A stretch of DNA of 28,348 bases, taken from the NCBI GenBank assembly GCA_040752415.1, contig JBFMGU010000138.1, positions 1 to 28,348 of the forward strand, given 5' to 3'. The DNA comes from Myxococcota bacterium. Lineage in GTDB: Bacteria > Myxococcota > JACRCW01. Under the pieces are notes generated by a model. It was given only the letters and a program-made list of their open reading frames with translations, was not told the origin of the DNA and ran no database searches. The translations under genes were made by a program, and so were the position numbers. Shown piece by piece: positions 1 to 24,108 of the stretch; position 1 is the stretch's first letter, and the number at the start of each line of letters is the position of its first letter.

Positions 1-1073
1 GCGGGCCGCGGCGGAGAGGAGATGGGGCGTGCCCCGGCGCCCGCGCCCGCCACCGGGCCCGAGACGGGACGCGTGGCCGCCGGTGCGCCGGGCGCGGACG
101 GTGCGCGAGGCGGCGGGGCCGGACGCGGTGTCGTCGAGGAGGTGCCGGCCGCGGAAGCCGGGGCGCCGGGCGCGGTGGGACGCGCCGCCTGTGCTGGCGT
201 GACGCCGGTGGTGGTGCGCGCGGGCGTGGCGGGGAAGAACTTCTGCGCCGTGCTCAGCACCCCCGCCTTGGAGGAGGCAAATCCCGCCGAGGTCCAGAAC
301 GTCTCCAGCTGCGAGGTCAGGTTTGCCACCGACTGCGGCCGCTGGTCCGCGCGCGGCGCCGCCAACGTCATGGCGATCTTGGCGAGCTGCCCCGCCGGGC
401 CCTGCGCGGTGAGCGTGCTGATGACGGCGGGCTTCATGTCCACCGCGCCCTCCGGCGTGGGCGGGACCCCGGTGAGCAGCTCCAGCGTCATGGCCCCCAG
501 CGCGAAGATGTCCGTCTGCCCGTCAATGAGACCGCCGGAGCGCGCCTCCATGGGCAGGTAGCGGATGACCTCCGCGCGGGATGGCGCCGGGGGCAGCGGC
601 CCGCTCATGCCGGGCATCTGCACCTTGTTGAGGTCAATCAGCAGGACCTGTCCGTCGCTGCGAATCAGGAAGTCCCGCGGGTTGATGCCGCGCAGGATGA
701 TGCCCGTGGCGTGTGCCACCGCCATGCCCTCGGCAATCTGCGAGACCACGCTGGCGGCGGTGGGGACGTCCAGCGGCAGGGGCAGGTCGGTGAGCTTGAT
801 GCCGCTGACCCACGGACTGACGGTGTAGATGCGGGCCCCCACCCGCCGCGCGGCAATCACCGGCACCAGCGAAGCATGCAACAGGCTGGCGGCAAGCTTG
901 CTGGAGGTGCTGAAGGCGGCCACGCGCTCGGGGTAGGTGGCGTGGTCGTCGCGCAGGGTCTTGAGGGTCACCTCGCGGCCGGATTCCCGGTCCAGCGCGC
1001 GGGCCACCACCACGGTGCGGCCTTCGGCCACCCGTTGTTTGACCTCGTACCGCTGGGCCTTGTCCGAAACCAC
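1..1073 (-). CDS. Ser/Thr protein kinase-like protein, probable pseudokinase, with Pro/Ala/Thr-rich tail; 3' end lies outside the window
   Basis: Not in the ORF track. Hand translation from GTG 1073 (TGGAGG at 1078-1083): MVSDKAQRYEVKQRVAEGRTVVVARALDRESGREVTLKTLRDD...AEGMAVAHATGIILRGINPRDFLIRSDGQVLLIDLNK...RYLPMEARSGGLIDGQTDIFALGAMTLELLTG. Hanks subdomain order is intact but the catalytic motifs are degenerate. Confidence 0.85.
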   Translation of the reverse strand, partial: MVSDKAQRYEVKQRVAEGRTVVVARALDRESGREVTLKTLRDDHATYPERVAAFSTSSKLAASLLHASLVPVIAARRVGARIYTVSPWVSGIKLTDLPLPLDVPTAASVVSQIAEGMAVAHATGIILRGINPRDFLIRSDGQVLLIDLNKVQMPGMSGPLPPAPSRAEVIRYLPMEARSGGLIDGQTDIFALGAMTLELLTGVPPTPEGAVDMKPAVISTLTAQGPAGQLAKIAMTLAAPRADQRPQSVANLTSQLETFWTSAGFASSKAGVLSTAQKFFPATPARTTTGVTPAQAARPTAPGAPASAAGTSSTTPRPAPPPRAPSAPGAPAATRPVSGPVAGAGAGARPISSPPRP

Positions 1074-1150
1074 GCAACCTCCAATCCACCTGACTCTCAC
1101 GCCCCGGGGCTCAGCGCAACCCGCGCCAGGCGTGACCGGGGGCGCGTCCA

Positions 1151-3634
1151 TCACCAGTCCCGCTTCACCCGGGTGTCCTCGTTGGCACGGACGACAATCG
1201 TCTCGCGCTCGTCCTTGCCCAGCTGGTCATTCACCAGCCTGAGCTCATGCTTGCCCACGTAGAGCTCCTTGGCGGGGAAGGGCGTGGTGCCCAGCTTCAC
1301 GCCGTTCACGTAGACGTGCGCCCAGCTCTTCATGACCACCTTGAGCCGGCCCTTGGGCACGTTGACCTTCCGGCGCATCTCCTCGCCCGTCTCCAAGCGA
1401 ACCTTCTCGAAGTACTCCACCCCCTTCTTCTCGTTGACCAGCCGCAGCGTCTGGGTGCCGGCGGGGATGCGCGCGCGCTTGAGTGGCGTCTTGCCCAGCA
1501 TGCGCCCCTTCTCGGTGAACACGGTGGTGTCCGGCTCGCTGTCCAACGTGAGGAAACCCACCTCCTGCGGCCGGTCCTTCTCCATCTCGAAGGCCACCTC
1601 CACCGTGGCGCCCTTCTCCACGTCGACAATCCGCTCCTCGGACTCATACCCGGCCAGCTTCACCGCCACGCTGTGGCTCTTGCCGCCGGTGACCTCCACG
1701 CCGGAGACGGGGGTGTTGCCCGCGGGCTTCCCGTCGACGGTGACCGCCGCGCCGCCGGGCGTGGAAGTGATGTTGAGGCGGCCCTTGCCCTCGGCGGCGT
1801 CGGCGGCGGTGAGCTGCACGCTGATGTCCTGCACGCCTTCCTTGAAGTGGAACCGCCGGGTCTCGTCGCCGTAGCCCTCCAGGCTCAGGGTGGCCACGTG
1901 CGGTTCCCCGTCCACGGGCAGGCCGGCCAGCTCCAGCGGCGTGACCCCGTCCAGCGGGCGACCATCCAGGTACACCTTGGCGCCCGCGGGCGTGGAGCGG
2001 AAGCGCAGCACCGTGCCGGGCTTCTCCTTCTCCAGCGTGAGGTCCAGCTCCACGGTGTCCTCGCCGGTGATCTTCACGTCGCGCAGGGCCGGGGCGTAGC
2101 CGGGCAGCTCCACGCGCAGCGCGTACGCGCGACCGATCTCCAGGTTGGGAATCACCAGCGGGCTGCGCTGGTCCAGCTCCTTGCCGTCGACGAAGACCTT
2201 GGCGCCCTTGGGCTGCGTGCGCAGCGCCACGCGGCCGGCGGCCTCGGGCTGCAGCAGCATGAACGTGGCGGTGCCCACCAGCGCGGCCATGACCACCAGG
2301 CCCGCGGCGGCCAGCGCGAAGTTCCGCCGACTCATGGGCCGCGCCCCCGTCTGGGAGAGCTCACCCGCCATGGTGGCCTGGGTCTGTTCCGCCTGGAACT
2401 CCTCCAGTGACGACGACACCGGCTGCACTGCGGCGGGCCGGCTCGTGGACACGCTGCGCTGGCGCGTGGCGGTGGCGGGCGGCGGGGGCGGCGGCATGTC
2501 CCCCTGCGTCACCATGGTGCCGGCTTCCTGCAGCTCGGCGGCGCTCATCGCGGCCACGCGCGGGTTGCTGGCGGAGGGATTGGAGGTGTTCCGTCGACGA
2601 GACTGGCTGGTGGGCTTGTCTCCGCCGGGGTTGCTGGGACCCTGGCTGCCCGCACCGCTGCCCTCCTGCTCGATGACGGGCATGCCCAGCGCCTTCTCCT
2701 GCTCGATGTGCTCCTTGAACAGCTCATGCATGTAGCCGGAGAGGCGCGCCGGGCTGTGCAGCATGCGGTTCTCGGCCAGGAACTCCTCCAGCGCCTCCGC
2801 CAGCTGGCGACAATCCCGGAACCGGTCCTCCCGCCGCTTCGCCAGCGACTTGAGGACAATCTCGCTGAGGCGCTTGGGATAGCCCTGCTTCACCTCGACG
2901 GGCGGCTTCACCTGCCCCTCGATGATGGCGTGCAGCGTCATGATCTCGTTCTGGTACTTGAACAGACGAGTCATGGTGGTGAGCTCGTACAGGACAATGC
3001 CCAGCGCGAACTGGTCGGTGCGCTGGTCCATCTGGTCGCCGGAGGCCTGCTCCGGGCTCATGTAGCTGTACTTGCCCTTCAGCACCCCGCTCTTGGTCTG
3101 CACGCTCTGCGTGGCCGCCTTGGCAATGCCAAAGTCCACGATCTTCGTCGTGCCGTCGTAGGTGACGATGATGTTCTGCGGGCTGATGTCGCGGTGGATG
3201 ATGTTCAGCGGGCGGCCGCTGAGGTCCTGCTTCTTGTGCGCGTAGTCCAGGCCGTTGGCGGCGTCGATGATGATCTGCAGCGCGTGGGGCAGCGGGACGT
3301 CGCCATCCTCCTCCGCCTGTCGACGCAGCACGCGCCGCACGTCCTGCCCGTGCAGGAACTCCATGGCAATGAAGTAGGTGCCCTGGTCCTCGCCAATCTC
3401 GAAGATCTGCACCACGTTGGGATGGCGCAGGTCGGCGGCGGTGCGCGCCTCGTCCAGGAACATCCGGACGAACTCCTCGTTCTGCACCAGGTGCGGCAGG
3501 ATGCGCTTGATGACAACCAGCTTCTCAAAGCCCACCAGGCCGGTCTGCTTGGCCAGGTACACCTCGGCCATGCCGCCTTGCGCAATCTTGCGCAGCAGCT
3601 GGTACTTGCCGGCGATGAGCTTCTGTTCCGCCAA
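1151..3634 (-). CDS. Membrane Ser/Thr protein kinase with extracytoplasmic PEGA repeats (827 aa)
   Basis: AQGGMAEV, VVIK, HRDISPQN, DFG, GKYSYMSPEQ, then a TM segment (FALAAAGLVVMAALVGTATFMLL) and 4-5 PEGA-like repeats (TQPKGAKVFVDG, STPAGAKVYLDG, STPGGAAVTVDG..GNTP). TTG start with AGGAGG upstream. Confidence 0.93.
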   Translation of the reverse strand: MAEQKLIAGKYQLLRKIAQGGMAEVYLAKQTGLVGFEKLVVIKRILPHLVQNEEFVRMFLDEARTAADLRHPNVVQIFEIGEDQGTYFIAMEFLHGQDVRRVLRRQAEEDGDVPLPHALQIIIDAANGLDYAHKKQDLSGRPLNIIHRDISPQNIIVTYDGTTKIVDFGIAKAATQSVQTKSGVLKGKYSYMSPEQASGDQMDQRTDQFALGIVLYELTTMTRLFKYQNEIMTLHAIIEGQVKPPVEVKQGYPKRLSEIVLKSLAKRREDRFRDCRQLAEALEEFLAENRMLHSPARLSGYMHELFKEHIEQEKALGMPVIEQEGSGAGSQGPSNPGGDKPTSQSRRRNTSNPSASNPRVAAMSAAELQEAGTMVTQGDMPPPPPPATATRQRSVSTSRPAAVQPVSSSLEEFQAEQTQATMAGELSQTGARPMSRRNFALAAAGLVVMAALVGTATFMLLQPEAAGRVALRTQPKGAKVFVDGKELDQRSPLVIPNLEIGRAYALRVELPGYAPALRDVKITGEDTVELDLTLEKEKPGTVLRFRSTPAGAKVYLDGRPLDGVTPLELAGLPVDGEPHVATLSLEGYGDETRRFHFKEGVQDISVQLTAADAAEGKGRLNITSTPGGAAVTVDGKPAGNTPVSGVEVTGGKSHSVAVKLAGYESEERIVDVEKGATVEVAFEMEKDRPQEVGFLTLDSEPDTTVFTEKGRMLGKTPLKRARIPAGTQTLRLVNEKKGVEYFEKVRLETGEEMRRKVNVPKGRLKVVMKSWAHVYVNGVKLGTTPFPAKELYVGKHELRLVNDQLGKDERETIVVRANEDTRVKRDW

Positions 3635-3737
3635 ACCCTTGCCCTCCTGAGGGCCTTATCCCCCGGATCCGTCGCCAGGCCACGCGCAATCTACAGGCCA
3701 CCGGCCCCGGGGGGATATTTCTCCGCCGCCCCTGTTG

Positions 3738-7459: not shown

Positions 7460-7483
7460 CCAGCGGTTCTGCTGGAGGTGCCT

Positions 7484-10285
7484 GTGAAAATGCGATCCTT
7501 GGCCCTGTTGTCCACGGGCATGTTGGCCATCTCGTGTGGTGGGCTTGCGGGCCCCTCTTGCGGGGGATGCGCGCCGGCCAACTACGTCTACCCCAGCAAG
7601 AACATGCAGGGCACCGAGGTGGTTGACGACGGCGTGCGGGCCCGCATCACCGAGCGCGGACTGGACTTCATTGCGGCGCACTTCAAGGACATCCTGCGCG
7701 AGCAGTTCCCGCCCGACCCCAACGGCGACCCCAACATCGCGCGCTTCCCGCTCCCCACCCAGCAGTTTACCGACTTCGACACCAGCTTTGGCGACCTCAC
7801 CATCTGCCTGATGGGCAACAGCCAGGACGGCGCGTGTCCCAACCCCGGTAACGTCCAGAGCGCGGTGACGTTGGACCTCAACCAGCTCGAGGACAAGATC
7901 ACCGTCGACTTCATCGACGGCACGCCCGGCGGCATCCGCGTGGTGGCGCGGGACCTGCTGCTCGGTCTGGACGGCCGCATCAACACCACGGTCCGTCCCT
8001 TCGACCTGTTCGACACCGACGCCGAGTGCGACCTGCACGGTGAGACGGTTCTGCCGGGCAGCTTCCCGCCGTTCACCGTCGGCAGCATCGACATCACTGC
8101 GGAGATCTACCCGTCGGTGAGCACGGACCCGGCGGTGTGCCTGACTGGCGCGGCGCAGTGCTTCGTGGCGCGAGTGCAGGTCACGGACGCCGCCATCAAC
8201 GGCGTGGGTCTCGGCGTCAGCACGCCGCCCATGTGCAACACCGGCGACCCGCGCTGCTCGGAGGCGTGCTCGGACACGTTCGGGTTCAGCTGCAGCACCA
8301 ACGCGTGCTTTGACTTTGGCGACCAGCCCTTCTGCCCGGACCCCACCGGTGACTGCGAGTGTCGCAGCTTCTTCTGCCCGGTGTACGGCTTTGGCGCCAC
8401 CATCCTGGGCCAGATTGCGGACTTCCTGTTCACGGTGCTGGAGCCCGTCCTGGACAACCTGTTCACCGCCGCGCTCAACTCGGCGCTGGACCAGTTCAAC
8501 GGGCAGCCGCTCTCCTTCACTGGCCAGGTCGACGTCGCTGCATTTGCCGGCGGGCTGGTGCCCGGGCTCTCCGGTGCCAACCCGCTGGGCTTCACCATGG
8601 CGCCCACCAACAACGCCTTCAGCGTGACGTGTCCGCCGGGCACCAATGATTGCGCGGAGCGCAAGGGCATGGACCTGCACCTGCACAGCGGCTTCGAGGC
8701 GGTGCATGACCCGCAGAATGAGCGGCCTTCTCCGTCGGACTGCGTGCCGCTCGTCGACGGAGCCAAGTTCGTCCAGCTCTACCAGGACGTGGCCTTCCAG
8801 GCCGCCGACGGACTCCCGCTCAATGGCGAGTTCCTGGATTCCAGCAACAACGCGCGCATCTATGACCTCGGTGCGTCGGTGGCGCGCGCCACGCTGAACC
8901 AGATGGGCTACGCGGTGCACAACGCGGGCGTGCTGTGTCTCTCACTGGATTCCTACGCGCTGCACGGCATCAGCGGCGGCTCGTTCTCGTTGACGGCGGG
9001 GGCGCTGGACCTGCTCACCGGCGGTCGACTGGCCAAGTACACGGACCCCAAGTCGCCCGTGCTGCTGGCGCTGGCTCCCGCGGAGCCCATTGTCTTCACG
9101 TTCGGCGCGGGCACCACCGACGACCCGCACCTCCAGATCTCCATGAAGGAGATGCACGTCAGCATCTACGTGATGATGTACGAGCGTCACGCGCGCGTCT
9201 TCGAGGTGACCACGGACGTGTTCGCGGGATTGAACGTGAACGTGGACCCGGTGACGCATGAGCTGACCATCGCGGTGGCGTCGGGACCGGAGATCGACAA
9301 CTTCCAGCAGGTCTACAACGAGCTCCTCCCCGACGTGGACTGGAGTGACCTGCTCCCCAGCCTCATCAACGTGGCGCTGGGCGCCATCCTCAACCAGGAA
9401 ATCAGCTTCAACTACGACATCTCCCCGCTGCTCTCCGACGCCATGGGCGGTGTCCCGGTGTACCTGGTGTTCGAGGCGCTGCAGACGGAGGCGGTGAACG
9501 GGCAGCGGGAGTTCCTGAACCTGTACCTCTCGCTCTCGGAGACCGACCCGAACCCGCTGACCATCCCCGTGCAGCCGCGCCTGCAGCCGTCCTCCGACGT
9601 GCAGACCTGGTACCGCGACCTGGACGGCGTCCCGCGCGCAAGCGGCATGGCGCGCCTGATTGGGCCCTTGGAGGCGCCGCTGCCGACGGAGATTCGCTAC
9701 TCGTACAAGGTGGACTTCGGGCCGTGGCATGACTGGGTGGCGCCGGCGGCGGATGGTCACCTCTACGTGGAGGACAGCAAGCTGGGCCTGGTGGGTGAGC
9801 ACACGGTGTACGTGCGCGCGATGAAGGCGGGGCACTGGGGCTCGCTCAGCGAGGAGCCCGAGGTGGTGAAGGTGTGGACCGACCCGGCGCCGCCGCGTGT
9901 GTGGCTGAACCGTGCGGAAGGTCGCGTGGCGGTGCGCGCCGAGGACCGCGTGGCGCGTCCCGAGCAGCTTCAGATGCGTTGGCGCGTGGACGGCGGGGAG
10001 TGGAAGAGCTGGTCGGAGGTGCAGGACATCGACGAGGACGAGCTCGAGGGCGCCTACGTGCTGGAAGTGCAGGCGCGCGACCCGGCGGGCAACGTGAGCG
10101 AGGCGGAGGTGTTGGGCCTGCGGTCAAGTGAGCGTCCGGTGACGTCCGGAGATGCGCCTGCGGCCGAGTCCACTTCCCAGCAGTCCGACGGTTGCGTCTG
10201 CGCGCAGCCGAGTGAGCGGAATGGCCTCGGCGCCGCGATGGTGCTGGCGGGGCTGGTGCTGGTGCGCGTGCGTCGTCGTCGTTGA
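7484..10285 (+). CDS. Large surface protein: lipoprotein-type signal, BPI/LBP (TULIP)-like tandem domains with a Cys-rich insert, C-terminal beta-sandwich region and MYXO-CTERM-like sorting tail (~933 aa)
   Basis: N-terminus MKMRSLALLSTGMLAIS-C. GVRARITERGLDF and LGASVARATLNQMGYAVHNAGVLCLSL resemble BPI N- and C-barrel signatures. C-terminus SDGCVC...GAAMVLAGLVLVRVRRRR. GGAGG at 7474-7478; start GTG 7484 or ATG 7490. The CDS itself is well supported; the fold call is inference. Confidence 0.75.
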   Translation: MKMRSLALLSTGMLAISCGGLAGPSCGGCAPANYVYPSKNMQGTEVVDDGVRARITERGLDFIAAHFKDILREQFPPDPNGDPNIARFPLPTQQFTDFDTSFGDLTICLMGNSQDGACPNPGNVQSAVTLDLNQLEDKITVDFIDGTPGGIRVVARDLLLGLDGRINTTVRPFDLFDTDAECDLHGETVLPGSFPPFTVGSIDITAEIYPSVSTDPAVCLTGAAQCFVARVQVTDAAINGVGLGVSTPPMCNTGDPRCSEACSDTFGFSCSTNACFDFGDQPFCPDPTGDCECRSFFCPVYGFGATILGQIADFLFTVLEPVLDNLFTAALNSALDQFNGQPLSFTGQVDVAAFAGGLVPGLSGANPLGFTMAPTNNAFSVTCPPGTNDCAERKGMDLHLHSGFEAVHDPQNERPSPSDCVPLVDGAKFVQLYQDVAFQAADGLPLNGEFLDSSNNARIYDLGASVARATLNQMGYAVHNAGVLCLSLDSYALHGISGGSFSLTAGALDLLTGGRLAKYTDPKSPVLLALAPAEPIVFTFGAGTTDDPHLQISMKEMHVSIYVMMYERHARVFEVTTDVFAGLNVNVDPVTHELTIAVASGPEIDNFQQVYNELLPDVDWSDLLPSLINVALGAILNQEISFNYDISPLLSDAMGGVPVYLVFEALQTEAVNGQREFLNLYLSLSETDPNPLTIPVQPRLQPSSDVQTWYRDLDGVPRASGMARLIGPLEAPLPTEIRYSYKVDFGPWHDWVAPAADGHLYVEDSKLGLVGEHTVYVRAMKAGHWGSLSEEPEVVKVWTDPAPPRVWLNRAEGRVAVRAEDRVARPEQLQMRWRVDGGEWKSWSEVQDIDEDELEGAYVLEVQARDPAGNVSEAEVLGLRSSERPVTSGDAPAAESTSQQSDGCVCAQPSERNGLGAAMVLAGLVLVRVRRRR

Positions 10286-10617
10286 GCGGCGGTGTCGGGT
10301 TGGGGTGGTGGCGAGTTGGCCCCCCCACCCGGCCGCCTCACGATTCCACCGATTTCACGACGAGGGCGGCCGACCTCCCCCACGGCGTGGGGAGGCGTAG
10401 ATGTGCCGCGCCCGGTGACTTCAGTGCGCCCAACGCGGCACAAGGCCTCATTGCGCCCGTGCCGCCCACTGGCGCAATGAACCACGCGAGGCGGCACATC
10501 TACGCCTCCCCACACCGTGGGGGAGGTCGGCCGCCGTCGTCGTGAAATCGGCGAAATCGTGAGGCGGCCGGGTGGGGGGGCCAATTCGCCACCAACCCAA
10601 CCCGACACCGCAGCTCA
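10283..10617. repeat. Long inverted repeat: two ~159-bp units (10283-10441 and 10459-10617) head to head; REP/BIME/MITE-like
   Basis: 10283-10409 matches the reverse complement of 10491-10617 at 120 of 127 positions by manual alignment. Each unit ends in GTAGATGTGCCGCS-N23-SGCGGCAC. Confidence 0.9.
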
Positions 10618-12114
10618 GAACGTGACAGCCAGCTGCAACATCCCGTTCACCACCTGGCTCTCGGTCACCTTCACCCGACGTCCCGGCGCATCGAGCACCG
10701 GGTTGTAATACGGGTTCCGCTCGCTCTTGCTGATGCCATTTCCGTCGGTGTCATACCCAGCCACTTCACCGGTGATGAGGTGCGGCGTCTCATGGCCCAC
10801 CTCCACGTTCGCCTTCAGCATCACGAACGGCACCGCCAGCACCACGCCCACGTTGCCGAAGATCTCGACGTAGCTGTCCACCATGGTCCACTTGTTGAGC
10901 GCGTCGCTCATCTCGGACGGCCCACGGTGCTTGGCGATGTAGTTGAGCCGCCCGCCCAGGATGAGCCGCAGGTTCACCAGCTCATTGATCTCCCCCAGCG
11001 AGTACAGCGGCACCACCTCGACGCCGCCCATGACACCCGCGCGGTTGCTCCAGAACGCGAAGTCGCGCCAGTCGCGCTCCGGCGCCAGGTCACCGCGGTA
11101 CTGCGGGATGCCCAGCGTGTAGTGCGCGCCAAAGTACGGGTCGAACAGCTTGAGCTGCTTGCTCATGGCAAACGCGGCCGTGAGGCGGTGCAGCCCGCTG
11201 CCGGTACCACCCGGGTCAAAGTTCTCGGTGGTGCCGCCCAGCTTCTCGCGGCTCGTCGGGGACTCCATCCAGCCCACGGGAATCTGGTACTTGAACTCCA
11301 TGCGCATGGACGGCATGGCCGGGTCGCGCTTGTCGTTGAAGCGGCCGATGCTGAAGGGGCTGAACGCAAATCCCAGCTCCGCGTCGCCAATGCCCTTGGG
11401 GAAGAACTGGAAGCCGTTCACCACGCGGTAGCTGGCTGCGCCGCGGACGGACTGGAACGCCGGCGTGATTCCCGTGGCCCCGGGGTTGATGTCCCAGTTG
11501 GTATCCCGACCGTTCTGCTCGCCTGGGATGGGTTTCCCGTCGGAGTCCGTCTCGTACTCGTGGTTGACGGGCCAGCTGCCGCCCGTGCCCGCCAGCGTGT
11601 TGCGGTGCTCACCCTCTTCCCATTCCGCCGCGCACGCTTCGGGGCGTTGGTAGCCGGGCCCCTCGTCATGGCCGTAGAGGCACATGTCCCGCACGAAGGT
11701 GCTGTACCCCTCCTTGCTGGTGCTCTGCTCCCCGGAGAGGTCATTGCGACGCTGGTACCAGCCCAGGCGGTGATCCAGCGCCGTGTAGGGCAGGGCCATG
11801 AAGATCTCGATGTCCTGGAACAGGCCCACGCGCAGTCGCGGCACCACGGTGTGGCTGTGCTCCACGTACATGAACTCGGAGACGTCCACGGCGCGGGAGA
11901 CGGTCTGGTTCCCCTCGCGCACCTGGCGCACGTCCTCCCGCGTGATCTTGGCGCGCTTGGCGTGGCCCTGGTAGCTCAGCTCGATGTTCGCATCGAACAG
12001 GTCGTCGCCGTCGATGGCGTCCAAGACGTCGGTGGCCTCGGCGGCGCCGGCCTGACGGGCGGTCAGCAGGGCCAACAGCGCCAGTCCCAGCGTTCCCAGC
12101 CTCCGCGAGTGCAT
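10615..12114 (-). CDS. Predicted outer-membrane beta-barrel protein of unknown function (499 aa)
   Basis: Signal peptide MHSRRLGTLGLALLALLTARQAGA-AE (GGAGG upstream of ATG 12114). Alternating amphipathic strands (VVPRLRVGLF, DAELGFAFSP, YFGAHYTLG, EIFGNVGVVL). C-terminal Phe beta-signal GMLQLAVTF. Confidence 0.75.
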   Translation of the reverse strand: MHSRRLGTLGLALLALLTARQAGAAEATDVLDAIDGDDLFDANIELSYQGHAKRAKITREDVRQVREGNQTVSRAVDVSEFMYVEHSHTVVPRLRVGLFQDIEIFMALPYTALDHRLGWYQRRNDLSGEQSTSKEGYSTFVRDMCLYGHDEGPGYQRPEACAAEWEEGEHRNTLAGTGGSWPVNHEYETDSDGKPIPGEQNGRDTNWDINPGATGITPAFQSVRGAASYRVVNGFQFFPKGIGDAELGFAFSPFSIGRFNDKRDPAMPSMRMEFKYQIPVGWMESPTSREKLGGTTENFDPGGTGSGLHRLTAAFAMSKQLKLFDPYFGAHYTLGIPQYRGDLAPERDWRDFAFWSNRAGVMGGVEVVPLYSLGEINELVNLRLILGGRLNYIAKHRGPSEMSDALNKWTMVDSYVEIFGNVGVVLAVPFVMLKANVEVGHETPHLITGEVAGYDTDGNGISKSERNPYYNPVLDAPGRRVKVTESQVVNGMLQLAVTF

Positions 12115-12134
12115 GCTGCCTCCTGGCGGCACCG

Positions 12135-18784: not shown

Positions 18785-18974
18785 CTGGCCTCCCCGGGTT
18801 TCGCAGGGTGTCGCGACCGACGGGGTTCACGCAACGTGCTTGCTTTGGCCCGCGCTTCCGCCGCCACGTGGCGGGACCGGTTTGCCAGGCCACCCCGTCC
18901 TGATAACGTCCGCGGCTCGTGGGCGCGCTTTTCCGTGCGTCCGCTGTAGCCTTCCGGCCCGCCAACCCGGGCCA

Positions 18975-20969
<1,995 letters not shown>

Positions 20970-21066
20970 GTCCGCACTTGGGACTAGGCTGCGCGCACCA
21001 TTTTCGGGGGAGGGTTCCCCGCCAACGTCGGGCGGCCGCACCGCGGACCGCCTTCGAGGTGAACGC

Positions 21067-21486
21067 ATGGTGGTCGGACTTCTGGTTGTCGCGTTGCTGA
21101 TCGTGTGCGGCCTGCTCGGCGCGTCCGGGTTCATTGTCTCCAAGAAGCCCGACGCCAAGCAGCTGCTGGAGAAGCTGGTGCCCTACCAGGGCGGCGCGGG
21201 CATTGCGGGCATTGTGGTGGGCTTGCTTGGCCTGGTGAACATGCTGATGAACCTGGGCGCCCTGCTCAAGCACAGCGTGGGCGGCCTGGTCATTGGCCTC
21301 GTCGGCTCGGCGTCGCTCATCGGCACCGGGTTCCTGCTGGGCTTTGCCCTCATCCAGGGCTTCAACAAGGATCCCAACGCGCGCGCCAAGGCGGAGGAGC
21401 TGCGGACCAAGCTGGTGACCTACCAGGTGCCCATGGGCATGGTGTGCATCGTGCTCGGCGTGCTCAACCTGGTGTTCATGCTGTAA
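21067..21486 (+). CDS. Small four-TM membrane protein with an internal duplication (139 aa)
   Basis: GAGGTG RBS, four hydrophobic segments, repeated K-L-V-[PT]-Y-Q motif. Confidence 0.85.
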   Translation: MVVGLLVVALLIVCGLLGASGFIVSKKPDAKQLLEKLVPYQGGAGIAGIVVGLLGLVNMLMNLGALLKHSVGGLVIGLVGSASLIGTGFLLGFALIQGFNKDPNARAKAEELRTKLVTYQVPMGMVCIVLGVLNLVFML

Positions 21487-21558
21487 CCCCGACCCGCGGT
21501 GGCGCGGCGGCCTGTTGGTGGCGCTGCGCCCCCGTCGGTCCGACGGAAAATCCCGCTG

Positions 21559-24108
21559 ATGGCAGTGGTGCTCCGCCTCCTGTTGCTCGTCGTGGCCTTT
21601 CTGGGGGCGGCGTTCGTGTTCGTCCCGGGTATCCGCCCTGACCTGGTGGGCCCCCAGCTCGCCGACGAGCTCAGCAACCACGCCACCCTGGGCCTGTTCC
21701 TGGGCAAGGACAGCGTGATGACGCCGGCGGCGGGCGGGCTGTTCGTCCTGCTGGGCGTGGCGGCGCTGGTCAGCTTTGGCTGGGGCGGCTCCCGACGACG
21801 ACGGGACCCGCTCTCCCTGGCGCCGGGACAGAAACCCACCAAGAAGATTGCCAACCAGCTCCTCGAGGCCAAGCGCTACAAGGAAGCGGAGGAGATGTTC
21901 CGCCACCTGGGCATCATTGACGGGCTGGTGGCGGCGCTGAAGGGACAGGCCAAGTACGTGGAGGCGGCGGAGCTGCTGGAGAGCGACGCACGCCACTCCC
22001 AGGCCGCCGAGATCCTGGAGGACAGCAACCAGGCGCCGGCCATGCAGCGCGCCGGTGAGCTGTGGCAGGCGCTGGGCAACGCGGAGCGCGGGCTCGCCGT
22101 CATGCGCAAGGCCGCGGCGCTCTTCGCCGCCAAGGGTGAAGGCGACAAGGCCATTGAAGCGCTGGCCAAGTACGGCGACACGCAGACCGCGCGGCAATAC
22201 CTGGACTCCGCCGCGGAAGCGCTGGCGCGACAGGGCAAACACGCGCGCGCCGCGGAGATGTTCGAGAAATTTGGCGACGAAGCCCGCGCCGCCGCCGCGT
22301 ACGAATACGACGCCAGCACGCAGACCGAGGAGCGCGACCGCAAGCAGTCCGGCGTGAAGGCGGCCAAGCTGTACCGGAAGGTGGGGGACATGGTGGGGTG
22401 TGGTCGCGCGCTGGAGATCAGCGGCTTCCACGAGAAGGCGGCCGAGGCCTACGGGATGGCCAAGGACTGGGCCAGCGCCGCGCGCTGTCTCAACGCGTGC
22501 GGACAGACGGAGCGGGCCGCGCAGCTGCTGGTGCAGAGCGGGATGGGGCACCAGGCCGTGGCGGTGCTGGAGAACACCGGCGACATGCGCGCCGCCGCCG
22601 CCGCCGCGCTGGCCAGCCATGACTTCTACAAGGCCGCGCAGATCTACGAGGACATGGGTGACCTGGAGGCCGCGTTCAACGCGCACGTCCAGGGCGCCAA
22701 CTACCCCGCCGCCGCCGAGATCGCGCTGCAGCGCAACCGGCCCCAGGACGCGGCGGACCTGTTCGAGCGCGCGGGCAATCCTCGTCGGGCGGCGGAGATC
22801 TATGAGGCCATGGGCAACCGCCTCAAGGCGGGAGAGCTCTACGGCCGCGCCGGCGACAAGGGCGGTGCCGCGCGCATGCTGGTGGCGGAGAACCGCATCA
22901 AGGAAGCCGCGCAGATCCTCCTTGGCGACAGCCGGCCGGAGTCGCTGGACGTGCAGCAGGAGGTGGCGCGCCGGCTCATGATGGGCGGGGAGCTGAAGGG
23001 CGCCATCACGCTCCTCAAGAGCGGTGTCGACGCGCGCGCGCCCAATGAGTGCATCAGCGCCACGCTGGAGCTGAGCAACATGCTGGAGGCCGCCGGGGAC
23101 ATTCCCAGTGCGCTGGCCTACGCGCAGCGTGCGCTGGCCGCCAAGAAGGACCACGCGGAAGCGGTGATGCGCGTGCAGCAGCTGTTCATGCGCATCAACA
23201 ACGAGCAGATGCGGGCCGCGTACGAGACGGCCATGGCGCAGCAGCAGGCGGCGCTGGTGGCGCTCAACATGCAGAAGCCGCTCACCCAGCCGGAGGAGGA
23301 CAAGCCGCCGCGCTACGTGCCGGAGGCGGAGATCGGTCGCGGCGCCATGGGCCTGGTGTTCCGCGCGCGTGACACCGTGCTGAACCGCATGGTGGCCCTC
23401 AAGCGGCTGCCGGAAGTGGTCGCCTCCGATCCCGAGGCGCGCCAGCGCTTCCTCGAAGAGGCGCGCGCCGCCGCCGGGCTCAACCATCCCAGCGTGGTCA
23501 CCGTCTACGACGCCGGCGTGGAGAAGGGCCTTCCCTACCTGGCCATGGAGCTCATTGACGGCACCACGCTGAGCCACCTGCAGCAGCAGGGCGTGCTCAC
23601 GCCGTCCAAGGCGCTGAGCATGTGCGCCGCGGTGGCCAGCGCGCTGGACCACGCGCACAAGGCCGGCATCGTCCACCGCGACGTGAAGCCCGGCAACATC
23701 CTCATCAGCAAGGAAGGCCGCGTGAAGCTGACGGACTTTGGCATTGCCGCGGCGTTCACCTCCGGCGAGGCCAAGGGCGTGACCGGGACGCCGTACTACA
23801 TGTCGCCCGAGCAGGTGCGCGGTGCGGCGGTGGATGGTCGCGCGGACATCTACTCGCTGGGGTGCGTGCTCTACGCGCTGCTCACCGGCAAGCCGCCCTT
23901 CACCGGCTCCGACGTCATGCAGGCCCACCTGCGCGCTCCCGTGCCCTCGCTGGCCGTCCACAAACCGGACCTGCCCGCGGCCGAGCTGGACGCCGTCATT
24001 GCCCGGTGCATGGCGAAGGACCCCGCGCAGCGGTTTGCCACGGCGCAGGAGTGTGGTCGCGCGTTCCTGGAGCTGGAGGCGCGGCTGCGCAAGCAGGCCG
24101 GCGCGTGA
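21559..24108 (+). CDS. Ser/Thr protein kinase with N-terminal TM segments and a long alpha-solenoid/TPR-like region (849 aa)
   Basis: Two N-terminal hydrophobic segments, many AAxxY/FExxG repeats, C-terminal kinase GRGAMGLV, VALK, HRDVKPGN, DFG, GTPYYMSPEQ, DIYSLG. Confidence 0.92.
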   Translation: MAVVLRLLLLVVAFLGAAFVFVPGIRPDLVGPQLADELSNHATLGLFLGKDSVMTPAAGGLFVLLGVAALVSFGWGGSRRRRDPLSLAPGQKPTKKIANQLLEAKRYKEAEEMFRHLGIIDGLVAALKGQAKYVEAAELLESDARHSQAAEILEDSNQAPAMQRAGELWQALGNAERGLAVMRKAAALFAAKGEGDKAIEALAKYGDTQTARQYLDSAAEALARQGKHARAAEMFEKFGDEARAAAAYEYDASTQTEERDRKQSGVKAAKLYRKVGDMVGCGRALEISGFHEKAAEAYGMAKDWASAARCLNACGQTERAAQLLVQSGMGHQAVAVLENTGDMRAAAAAALASHDFYKAAQIYEDMGDLEAAFNAHVQGANYPAAAEIALQRNRPQDAADLFERAGNPRRAAEIYEAMGNRLKAGELYGRAGDKGGAARMLVAENRIKEAAQILLGDSRPESLDVQQEVARRLMMGGELKGAITLLKSGVDARAPNECISATLELSNMLEAAGDIPSALAYAQRALAAKKDHAEAVMRVQQLFMRINNEQMRAAYETAMAQQQAALVALNMQKPLTQPEEDKPPRYVPEAEIGRGAMGLVFRARDTVLNRMVALKRLPEVVASDPEARQRFLEEARAAAGLNHPSVVTVYDAGVEKGLPYLAMELIDGTTLSHLQQQGVLTPSKALSMCAAVASALDHAHKAGIVHRDVKPGNILISKEGRVKLTDFGIAAAFTSGEAKGVTGTPYYMSPEQVRGAAVDGRADIYSLGCVLYALLTGKPPFTGSDVMQAHLRAPVPSLAVHKPDLPAAELDAVIARCMAKDPAQRFATAQECGRAFLELEARLRKQAGA

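Follow-up and report, generated by a model that had tools for sequence, protein, structure and literature searches.

A predicted BPI/CETP-type double TULIP protein with anchoring signals at both ends, encoded by a Myxococcota bacterium

Predicted structure of the double TULIP protein

Contig JBFMGU010000138.1 of a Myxococcota bacterium (NCBI GenBank assembly GCA_040752415.1), analysed here over its whole stretch of 28,348 nucleotides (the window), carries on its forward strand a gene, hereafter the TULIP gene, whose product belongs by its predicted structure to the BPI/LBP/CETP class of double TULIP proteins. We regard this assignment as supported by the model. Judged from the same model, the product may function as an envelope-anchored lipid-binding or lipid-transfer protein that is displayed on the cell surface as a CETP/PLTP-like carrier, and we assign this functional reading a probability of about 0.55. 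Residue numbers throughout the text are counted from an in-frame GTG codon at position 7478, which corresponds to a form of 935 amino acids (aa).

The structural assignment was obtained from an AlphaFold2 model, computed without templates from an alignment of 67 full-length relatives (A1) that also served for all column conservation counts given below. The model has a mean predicted local distance difference test score (pLDDT) of 87.4 and a predicted template modelling score (pTM) of 0.82, and the five models range from 84.9 to 87.4 in pLDDT. Residues 49-689 form a complete double TULIP, in which two barrels, each built from a helix, a wrapped sheet and a second helix, are joined through a central sheet; the secondary-structure order of BPI-type proteins occurs twice, in the first barrel and again at residues 464-687. 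A Foldseek search against the PDB returned BPI (1bp1, E 2.0e-15; 1ewf), LBP (4m4d) and CETP (2obd, E 2.2e-13) as the five best matches, with P47 and OrfX1-OrfX3 next in the ranking. The structural alignment spans 446 of the 456 BPI residues, and sequence identity in the alignments to BPI, LBP and CETP is 12-14%. An exhaustive scan of 48,161 chains, carried out independently of Foldseek, also ranked CETP and BPI first, and for the N-terminal barrel (N-barrel) the single-barrel TULIPs Takeout, beta-carotene-binding protein, JHBP and Der p 7 came next; a single barrel of the protein superposes on such single-domain TULIPs. The ESM Atlas holds its own model of the protein, whose neighbours are Myxococcota clusters together with eukaryotic PLTP and nematode LBP_BPI_CETP_C clusters, a result that we treat as a lead only.

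A first-pass annotation of this DNA, made from the sequence, had claimed a resemblance to both barrels of the BPI/LBP fold, had proposed modelling with AlphaFold and comparison with BPI, LBP and CETP by Foldseek as a check, and had named the absence of tubular barrels together with a lack of profile-profile similarity to BPI/TULIP families as the refuting outcome. The barrels are present in the model, and the three named proteins rank at the top with two independent aligners over nearly the full length of BPI. Since the structural alignment begins at model residue 49 opposite BPI residue 1, the first of the motifs on which that annotation relied coincides with the strand at the N-terminus and with helix A. 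By alignment position, the stretch R-x-R-I-T-E-R-G-L-D-F occupies the place equivalent to the BPI N-terminus.

The peptides quoted in the annotation were all found in frame, namely DGVRARITERGLDF... at residues 51-77, YDLGASVARATLNQ... at 462-490, FSLTAGALDLL... at 503-521, PVLLALAP... at 527-542 and RVFEVTTDV... at 573-589, and the motifs lie where the 67-row alignment is best conserved (windows 451-575). The motif proposed to open the second barrel also finds a counterpart in the relatives. When 107 relatives were scanned at E<=0.1, LBP_BPI_CETP_C (PF02886) was the only Pfam family to recur, with matches in six of them (12.6-17.8 bits, E 0.0024-0.094), all under the gathering score of 23 bits and always at the start of the C-terminal barrel (C-barrel). 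In one of these relatives, P0046, residues 411-504 align to PF02886 profile positions 36-125 and residue 409 corresponds to residue 461 of the protein studied here, so that the weak matches begin at the same position as the quoted motif. LBP_BPI_CETP (PF01273) was absent from all 107 relatives in the same scan.

Searches with the protein itself place it in a large and unnamed family. HMMER against 1.84 billion cluster representatives gave 710 matches at E<=1e-3, 418 at E<=1e-10 and 65 at E<=1e-30. A word-indexed homologue search returned 12 matches including the protein itself, all unnamed or labelled 'hypothetical', and the same search with residues 455-700 returned 11 matches, none bearing a Pfam label. 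The sole Pfam match of the protein is a weak one to Big_13, and NCBIfam gave a weak match to an OmpL47-type sandwich in addition to a sub-threshold MYXO-CTERM match. A phmmer search against the PDB sequences gave nothing relevant. A locus scan with the single protein found no relative, and with profile A3 it found two loci.

Gene and domain organization

The reading frame runs on the forward strand from GTG 7478 to a stop codon at 10283-10285 and contains 935 codons without an internal stop. Its GC content by codon position is 0.66/0.46/0.90, as expected for a real gene in a window of 69% GC, and the number of HMMER matches given above (710 cluster representatives at E<=1e-3, 65 at E<=1e-30) makes a chance frame untenable; the frame is a real gene for a conserved protein. 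A GGAGG sequence at 7474-7478 lies 11 nucleotides before ATG 7490, and therefore the likely translation start is ATG 7490 (931 aa) rather than the in-frame GTG 7478 (935 aa). The start at 7484 given in the first-pass annotation is within 6 nucleotides of both candidates and coincides exactly with neither. The features of the gene and its product are as follows.

7474..7478, forward strand: Shine-Dalgarno-like GGAGG upstream of ATG 7490, read from the sequence
7490..10285, forward strand: gene for the 931-aa precursor (database gene call P0002, 931 aa)
7490..7537, forward strand: lipoprotein-type signal peptide with lipobox L-A-I-S-C and predicted acylated Cys20, from the sequence and the 67-row alignment
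7538..7621, forward strand: tether from the lipid anchor to the fold, residues 21-48, with Cys28 and Cys31 (C-G-G-C motif); pLDDT under 50 at 21-30
7622..8701, forward strand: N-terminal TULIP barrel, residues 49-408, from the AlphaFold2 model
8222..8353, forward strand: Cys-rich insertion, residues 249-292, between the last N-barrel sheet strand and helix B; pLDDT 50-54
8702..8857, forward strand: inter-barrel linker, residues 409-460, with Cys422, from the 67-row alignment
8858..9547, forward strand: C-terminal TULIP barrel, residues 461-690, from the AlphaFold2 model, the structure searches and the weak PF02886 matches in six of 107 relatives
9560..10129, forward strand: two fibronectin type III (FN3)/immunoglobulin (Ig)-like beta-sandwiches, residues 695-795 and 796-884, which make up a stalk in the model
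10130..10189, forward strand: disordered acidic/Ser-rich linker, residues 885-904; pLDDT under 50 at 885-912
10190..10282, forward strand: MYXO-CTERM-like tail, residues 905-935, with G-C-V-C at 905-908, a spacer, a helix at 913-934 and RRRR at 932-935

In the model, the N-barrel consists of a strand (49-58), helix A (59-76), a long beta-sheet (87-248), the 45-residue helix B (293-337) and three central-sheet strands (347-408), while the C-barrel consists of a strand (464-469), helix A' (470-483), a sheet (527-613), helix B' (626-638) and the central-sheet strands (662-687). The Cys-rich insertion varies in length among the relatives (alignment A2) and is modelled poorly. The first-pass annotation had placed beta-sandwich spacers after the barrels, and these correspond to the two sandwiches at residues 695-884.

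Eight columns of the 67-row alignment are conserved as cysteine. Cys422 and Cys487 are invariant (67/67 rows) and may form a disulfide. Beside the insertion, 58 rows have Cys295 and 59 have Cys300, and in the tether Cys28 is found in 63 rows and Cys31 in 53; Cys184 is likewise conserved. Such conserved cysteines fit an exported, extracytoplasmic and disulfide-bonded protein.

Signals at the N-terminus and the C-terminus

The signal peptide starts with M-R-S, continues with a hydrophobic run and ends in L-A-I-S-C20, a conserved lipobox that the first-pass annotation had overlooked. The Cys20 column holds cysteine in 66 of the 67 relatives. A PROSITE-like lipobox pattern matches 58 of them and a looser pattern 62. 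At the +2 position the residue is S in 27, G in 14, T in 8, A in 5, N in 4, D in 4 and another residue in 4, and never K.

At the extreme C-terminus, a Cys signature, a transmembrane helix and an Arg-rich end form a tripartite tail. Its Cys906 column is cysteine in 60 of the 67 rows, and a script detected a Cys-helix-basic tail in 51 relatives, with nine of the 16 misses added by eye. The MYXO-CTERM tag is confined to Myxococcota according to the Haft preprint, and in Myxococcus xanthus the tag is described as being cleaved by MrtX, after which TraA reaches the cell surface via the secretion system of type II (T2SS) (PMC11980579). The source genome (11.0 Mb in 520 contigs, 96.8% complete, with the window as contig C44) contains 44 TIGR03901 matches over the cut-off, as well as a myxosortase core domain (NF040914) with 115.5 bits against a cut-off of 100; none of 14 control genomes exceeds either cut-off. 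By these profile matches, the MYXO-CTERM sorting machinery is present in the genome, and the restricted occurrence of the tag assigns the genome to Myxococcota.

The tail is not always terminal. Five of the 44 MYXO-CTERM matches in the genome are internal, lying 142-877 codons before the end of the open frame. Approximately 25 of the 150 listed matches to the TULIP protein are long relatives of 1,250-1,600 aa, and in two such long forms, P0011 and P0013, the Cys-helix-RRRR element is internal; immediately after it come another hydrophobic, lipobox-like segment and roughly 500 further aa without a Pfam match. From their sequences, P0011 and P0013 look as if a MYXO-CTERM protein had been fused end to end with the lipoprotein gene next to it, and the same kind of fusion has been noted for MXAN_5598 (PMC11980579).

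Surface charge and proposed mechanism

The computed isoelectric point (pI) of the whole protein is 4.41, with a net charge of approximately -60, and that of the TULIP part (residues 40-700) is 4.13, in agreement with the earlier claim that the protein is acidic, unlike the cationic BPI. The N-barrel (residues 40-450) contains 53 aspartate and glutamate residues against 19 lysine and arginine residues, giving a net charge of about -34 and a pI of 4.07; the C-barrel has a pI of 4.26. The action of BPI and LBP on lipopolysaccharide (LPS) depends on a cationic N-terminal tip, and a cationic, LPS-binding N-barrel of this kind was not seen in the strongly acidic N-barrel of this protein. So acidic a surface speaks against an attack on LPS by cationic means, as in BPI, and for a carrier of the CETP/PLTP type.

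In the mechanism that we propose, the precursor would cross the inner membrane via Sec and be acylated at Cys20, the tail would be processed by the myxosortase of the genome after lipidation of Cys906, and the T2SS would carry the protein to the cell surface, the route reported for M. xanthus TraA, where it would be displayed on the outer membrane's outer face. There the barrel pair would hang by its middle between the N-terminal tether of about 28 residues and the two-sandwich stalk, with both barrel tips free to touch membranes. It would be held by its middle because the two chain ends of a double TULIP are located in its central sheet: strands 662-687 are the last in the DSSP order of the model, and the N-terminal strand of a double TULIP is assigned to the central sheet in the discussion of the TipA preprint (bioRxiv 10.1101/2025.09.09.675085). 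From a membrane that they touch, which might be the cell's own outer membrane, a vesicle, or a neighbouring or prey cell, the barrels could then pick up phospholipid acyl chains or other hydrophobic molecules and release them elsewhere.

Several findings weigh against the reading as a surface-displayed carrier. The first-pass annotation had suggested a Pfam search for the two BPI families, and the protein gave no match to PF01273 or PF02886 at E<=10. Profile A1 (67 rows) and profile A4 (14 rows), the latter built around the relatives with weak PF02886 matches, also found no BPI, LBP or CETP chain among the PDB sequences at E<=10 and returned Ig-like noise only. Because the family profiles reach no such chain, homology, as opposed to similarity of fold, depends on weak signals, and we consider the sequence evidence for homology with the eukaryotic BPI/LBP/CETP family suggestive only; by Pfam criteria the protein lies outside PF01273/PF02886 and outside DUF4403. 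The surface-sorting tail named in the first-pass annotation holds up in its tripartite, MYXO-CTERM-like arrangement and in the conservation of Cys906, but its TIGR03901 score of 14.5 bits (E 0.034) is under the cut-off of 20 bits, and seven of the 67 relatives stop after the second sandwich and have no tail. A lipobox-like start was flagged by script in eight of the 44 other MYXO-CTERM frames of the genome and was convincing by eye in about five, four of the 44 frames being cut by contig ends, so that the combination of lipobox and MYXO-CTERM, as read from the sequences, is a minority feature of the genome and not unique. The published sorting model, as far as it is described, presumes an ordinary cleaved signal peptide and not a lipoprotein signal, and the supplement of PMC11980579 contains nothing on the signal-peptide type of MYXO-CTERM proteins; the mechanism would have to combine Lol sorting of the lipobox with export by the T2SS. 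In addition, neither a conserved partner gene nor a lipid-metabolism neighbour was found at the window or at 22 related loci.

Alternative explanations

The signals at the two ends of the protein would also suit a shuttle or bridge for lipids between the two membranes, with the N-terminal acyl anchor brought to the outer membrane by Lol, an uncleaved C-terminal helix in the inner membrane, and phospholipid transfer in the periplasm as by the TULIPs of ERMES and E-Syt. Both membrane signals are conserved, the tail scores under the MYXO-CTERM cut-off and may be a plain anchor, and in the long forms P0011 and P0013 the Cys-helix-RRRR element is internal. Diderm TULIPs have been discussed as candidate inter-membrane carriers (Levine 2019, PMC6791001), and by a rough estimate from general domain sizes the parts could span the periplasm. 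We nevertheless consider a periplasmic bridge unlikely, since a cysteine just ahead of the helix, kept as Cys906 in 60 of the 67 rows, typifies a cleaved MYXO-CTERM, a paralog in the same genome has a tail over the cut-off (28.5 bits), the genome encodes the sortase, and seven of the 67 relatives have no C-terminal helix at all. Moreover, the chain ends appear to leave the double TULIP from its middle, a geometry ill-suited to an end-to-end bridge.

Instead of a phospholipid, the protein could carry or sense a small hydrophobic molecule that is not part of a membrane (a carotenoid, a metabolite of polyketide type or a lipid signal, for example), in the manner of the single-barrel TULIPs Takeout, JHBP and beta-carotene-binding protein. 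Myxococcota produce many hydrophobic metabolites, and an acidic surface and mounting on a stalk would suit a receptor or capture device. The identity of a ligand is not readable from the fold, however, and no biosynthetic cluster adjoins the gene in the window or at the 22 related loci, which leaves such a role improbable. The phylum contains many predators, and BPI is the best structural match, so a BPI-like antibacterial weapon that binds the LPS of prey and permeabilises prey outer membranes during predation was also considered. TipA of the predator Bdellovibrio is described as binding and destabilising bilayers (bioRxiv 10.1101/2025.09.09.675085). The N-barrel, with its pI of 4.07 and net charge of about -34, stands opposed to the cationic tip of BPI and LBP, and the protein carries two anchoring signals where a weapon would call for release; we judge this role very unlikely. 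Finally, the TULIP likeness could be a modelling artefact, or the domain could be a purely structural or adhesive module, given that no sequence match to any TULIP family passes its threshold and the fold is a predicted one. An explanation of this kind would have to account for five template-free models that all reach a pLDDT of 84.9-87.4, for a match that covers nearly all of BPI with the secondary-structure elements in the same order, and for the same neighbours being found with the independent ESM Atlas model, and it seems to us remote. The surface-displayed, CETP/PLTP-like carrier is thus the reading that we prefer.

Genomic context and distribution

The family is widespread in the phylum. 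Among 301 sampled genomes, at least 176 match the family profile at E<=1e-10; 49 of these have only a weak best match (1e-16 to 1e-10), and about 127 match at E<=1e-35, often with two or three sites in a genome. These counts are floors, as the first look applied a stricter limit. A relative with 39% identity is found at locus L020, in a genome of the same class as that of the window. The source genome itself contains a paralog of the TULIP protein on the reverse strand of another contig (C191:8751-11636, locus L041), in an open frame of 961 codons, with an atypical signal end (L-A-R-C) and the MYXO-CTERM match of 28.5 bits mentioned above. Upstream of this paralog lies a PP-loop ATPase gene, with a 96-aa open reading frame between the two, and at seven of the eight loci of family f11 in which this ATPase occurs, it is directly upstream of the TULIP gene.

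In the window, the TULIP gene is preceded by a Cu-oxidase_4 (PgeF-like) gene and followed by a convergent beta-barrel gene. None of its neighbours (ABC1 kinase, PgeF-like gene, 505-aa gene, phosphoribosyltransferase) recurs beside relatives at the 22 loci, where housekeeping genes are found instead (APS kinase, PP-loop ATPase, NIF3, arginase, TruA). A sigma-54 activator is the commonest neighbour cluster (14 loci) and was rejected as a partner on account of paralogs at varying distances. At seven loci of one family (L030, L032, L033, L035, L037, L038 and L039) an unannotated gene of 174-206 aa without a Pfam match comes right after the TULIP gene in the same orientation; it could be a partner like TipB, the adaptor of TipA, and the window has no counterpart at this position. 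At L022, L023 and L024, the TULIP gene is followed by a gene of 316-662 aa with a weak match to ASH, an Ig-like domain.

The convergent gene downstream (10615-12132, reverse strand) encodes a protein of 505 aa that bears a signal peptide and ends in Phe. Pfam gives no match to it even at E<=1, its 11 relatives are all labelled 'hypothetical', and its AlphaFold2 model is a low-confidence outer-membrane beta-barrel (pLDDT 60.5) for which Foldseek returned FapF, porins and FadL, none of them specific. The gene is not syntenic with relatives of the TULIP gene, and a link between the two is not assumed. Elsewhere the window is rich in signalling genes (1-3655 and 18840-24108), with two or three Ser/Thr kinases, one of which has four PEGA domains, an FHA-GAF sigma-54 activator and a kinase with TPR-like repeats, as is usual for the phylum.

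Novelty and significance

Bacterial double TULIPs of the BPI type are already in print, as DUF4403 (PMC6791001) and as TipA (bioRxiv 10.1101/2025.09.09.675085), and the first-pass annotation, which described the fold as best known from eukaryotes, overrated its novelty in a bacterium. Our literature search found no published account of this particular Myxococcota family. What is particular here is a separate and populous family with an Ig-like stalk, a Cys-rich insert, and a lipobox together with a MYXO-CTERM-type tail. Taken together, we regard the fold as supported by the model, the function as inferred from it, and the novelty as moderate.

The family is large and unnamed, has no Pfam model, and would join a complete carrier of the BPI/CETP type to an Ig-like stalk, with anchoring signals at either end. 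Lipid transport to and beyond the outer membrane of diderms is an active question, and TULIPs, well studied in eukaryotes, have barely been studied in bacteria. If the protein is a carrier on the surface, it would be a candidate for taking lipids from prey, from vesicles or from kin, and contact-dependent exchange of membrane is a known trait of the phylum. For tracing where the animal BPI/LBP/CETP family came from, the family also adds a bacterial branch with many members. In its boldest form, this reading would describe a doubly lipid-anchored, stalk-mounted surface double TULIP that moves lipids between cells, either to harvest prey lipids or in outer-membrane exchange among kin, and that truly shares descent with animal BPI, LBP, CETP and PLTP. 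We consider the whole of this combination improbable; if it were true, the shared N-terminal strand/helix motif and the weak PF02886 signal would be marks of common descent, and the LPS-sensing and lipid-transfer proteins of animals would have arisen from lipid carriers of the bacterial envelope. A practical gain is available now, in that 'hypothetical proteins' can be annotated as BPI-like double-TULIP lipoproteins.

Comparison with known systems

With BPI, LBP, CETP and PLTP (PF01273 and PF02886; 1bp1, 1ewf, 4m4d, 2obd), the protein shares a structural alignment that starts at BPI residue 1, and CETP and PLTP are the closest in their carrier-like, non-cationic character. It differs from them in its identity of 12-14% without a Pfam match over threshold, its acidity (pI 4.1), the Cys-rich insert of about 45 residues before helix B, the conserved Cys184, Cys295, Cys300, Cys422 and Cys487, the predicted membrane anchors at both ends, the Ig-like stalk and the bacterial host.

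A second point of comparison is TipA (Bd2538) of Bdellovibrio bacteriovorus, presented with a solved structure in a preprint posted in 2025-26 as a BPI-like double TULIP that holds lipids, in addition to the bilayer activity mentioned above, and that is opened by the adaptor TipB (bioRxiv 10.1101/2025.09.09.675085). Its dimerisation hairpin occupies the same topological place as the Cys-rich insert, between the last N-barrel strand and helix B, and the legend of Fig. EV2 in the preprint refers to homologues in the AlphaFold database (AFDB) with fused beta-rich domains, as found here (10.1101/2025.09.09.675085). TipA is described there as a soluble protein of about 570 aa in an operon with the small, C2-like beta-sandwich TipB, whereas the present protein has two sandwiches fused in cis and carries lipid-anchor signals. 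No small TipB-like partner is conserved beside the TULIP gene in the window and the 22 loci. TipA was not among the 50 Foldseek PDB matches listed, and the likeness to it is by description only.

DUF4403 (PF14356) was predicted in 2019 by Levine as a full-length bacterial homologue of BPI, a pseudo-dimeric double TULIP of diderms whose members are mostly predicted outer-membrane lipoproteins (PMC6791001). The protein studied here has the double TULIP, the diderm host and the predicted lipoprotein character in common with this family, which as described there comprises proteins of about 460 aa without a stalk and without a C-terminal sorting tail. PF14356 has no match in the TULIP protein or its genome and is present in one of 21 related genomes, and when profile A1 was compared by hhalign with a DUF4403 member (from genome G005), the probability was 0.8%; by sequence comparison, DUF4403 is a different family. 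The P47 and OrfX proteins of the clostridial neurotoxin clusters (5wix, 8bgm) are also bacterial TULIP folds, found by Foldseek with E values of 1.3e-6 and 1.9e-5, but their match is much weaker (TM-score by target 0.27-0.34) and they come from Gram-positive hosts and have neither lipobox nor tail.

Outside the TULIP proteins, the nearest comparison is with sorted surface proteins of the MYXO-CTERM type, of which TraA carries a PA14 domain and Cys-rich repeats. The tripartite tail is common to the present protein and to M. xanthus TraA, which is described as sorted by MrtX (PMC11980579). In contrast to TraA-type proteins, the tail here scores under the TIGR03901 cut-off, the N-terminus bears a lipoprotein signal, and the passenger is a predicted lipid carrier.

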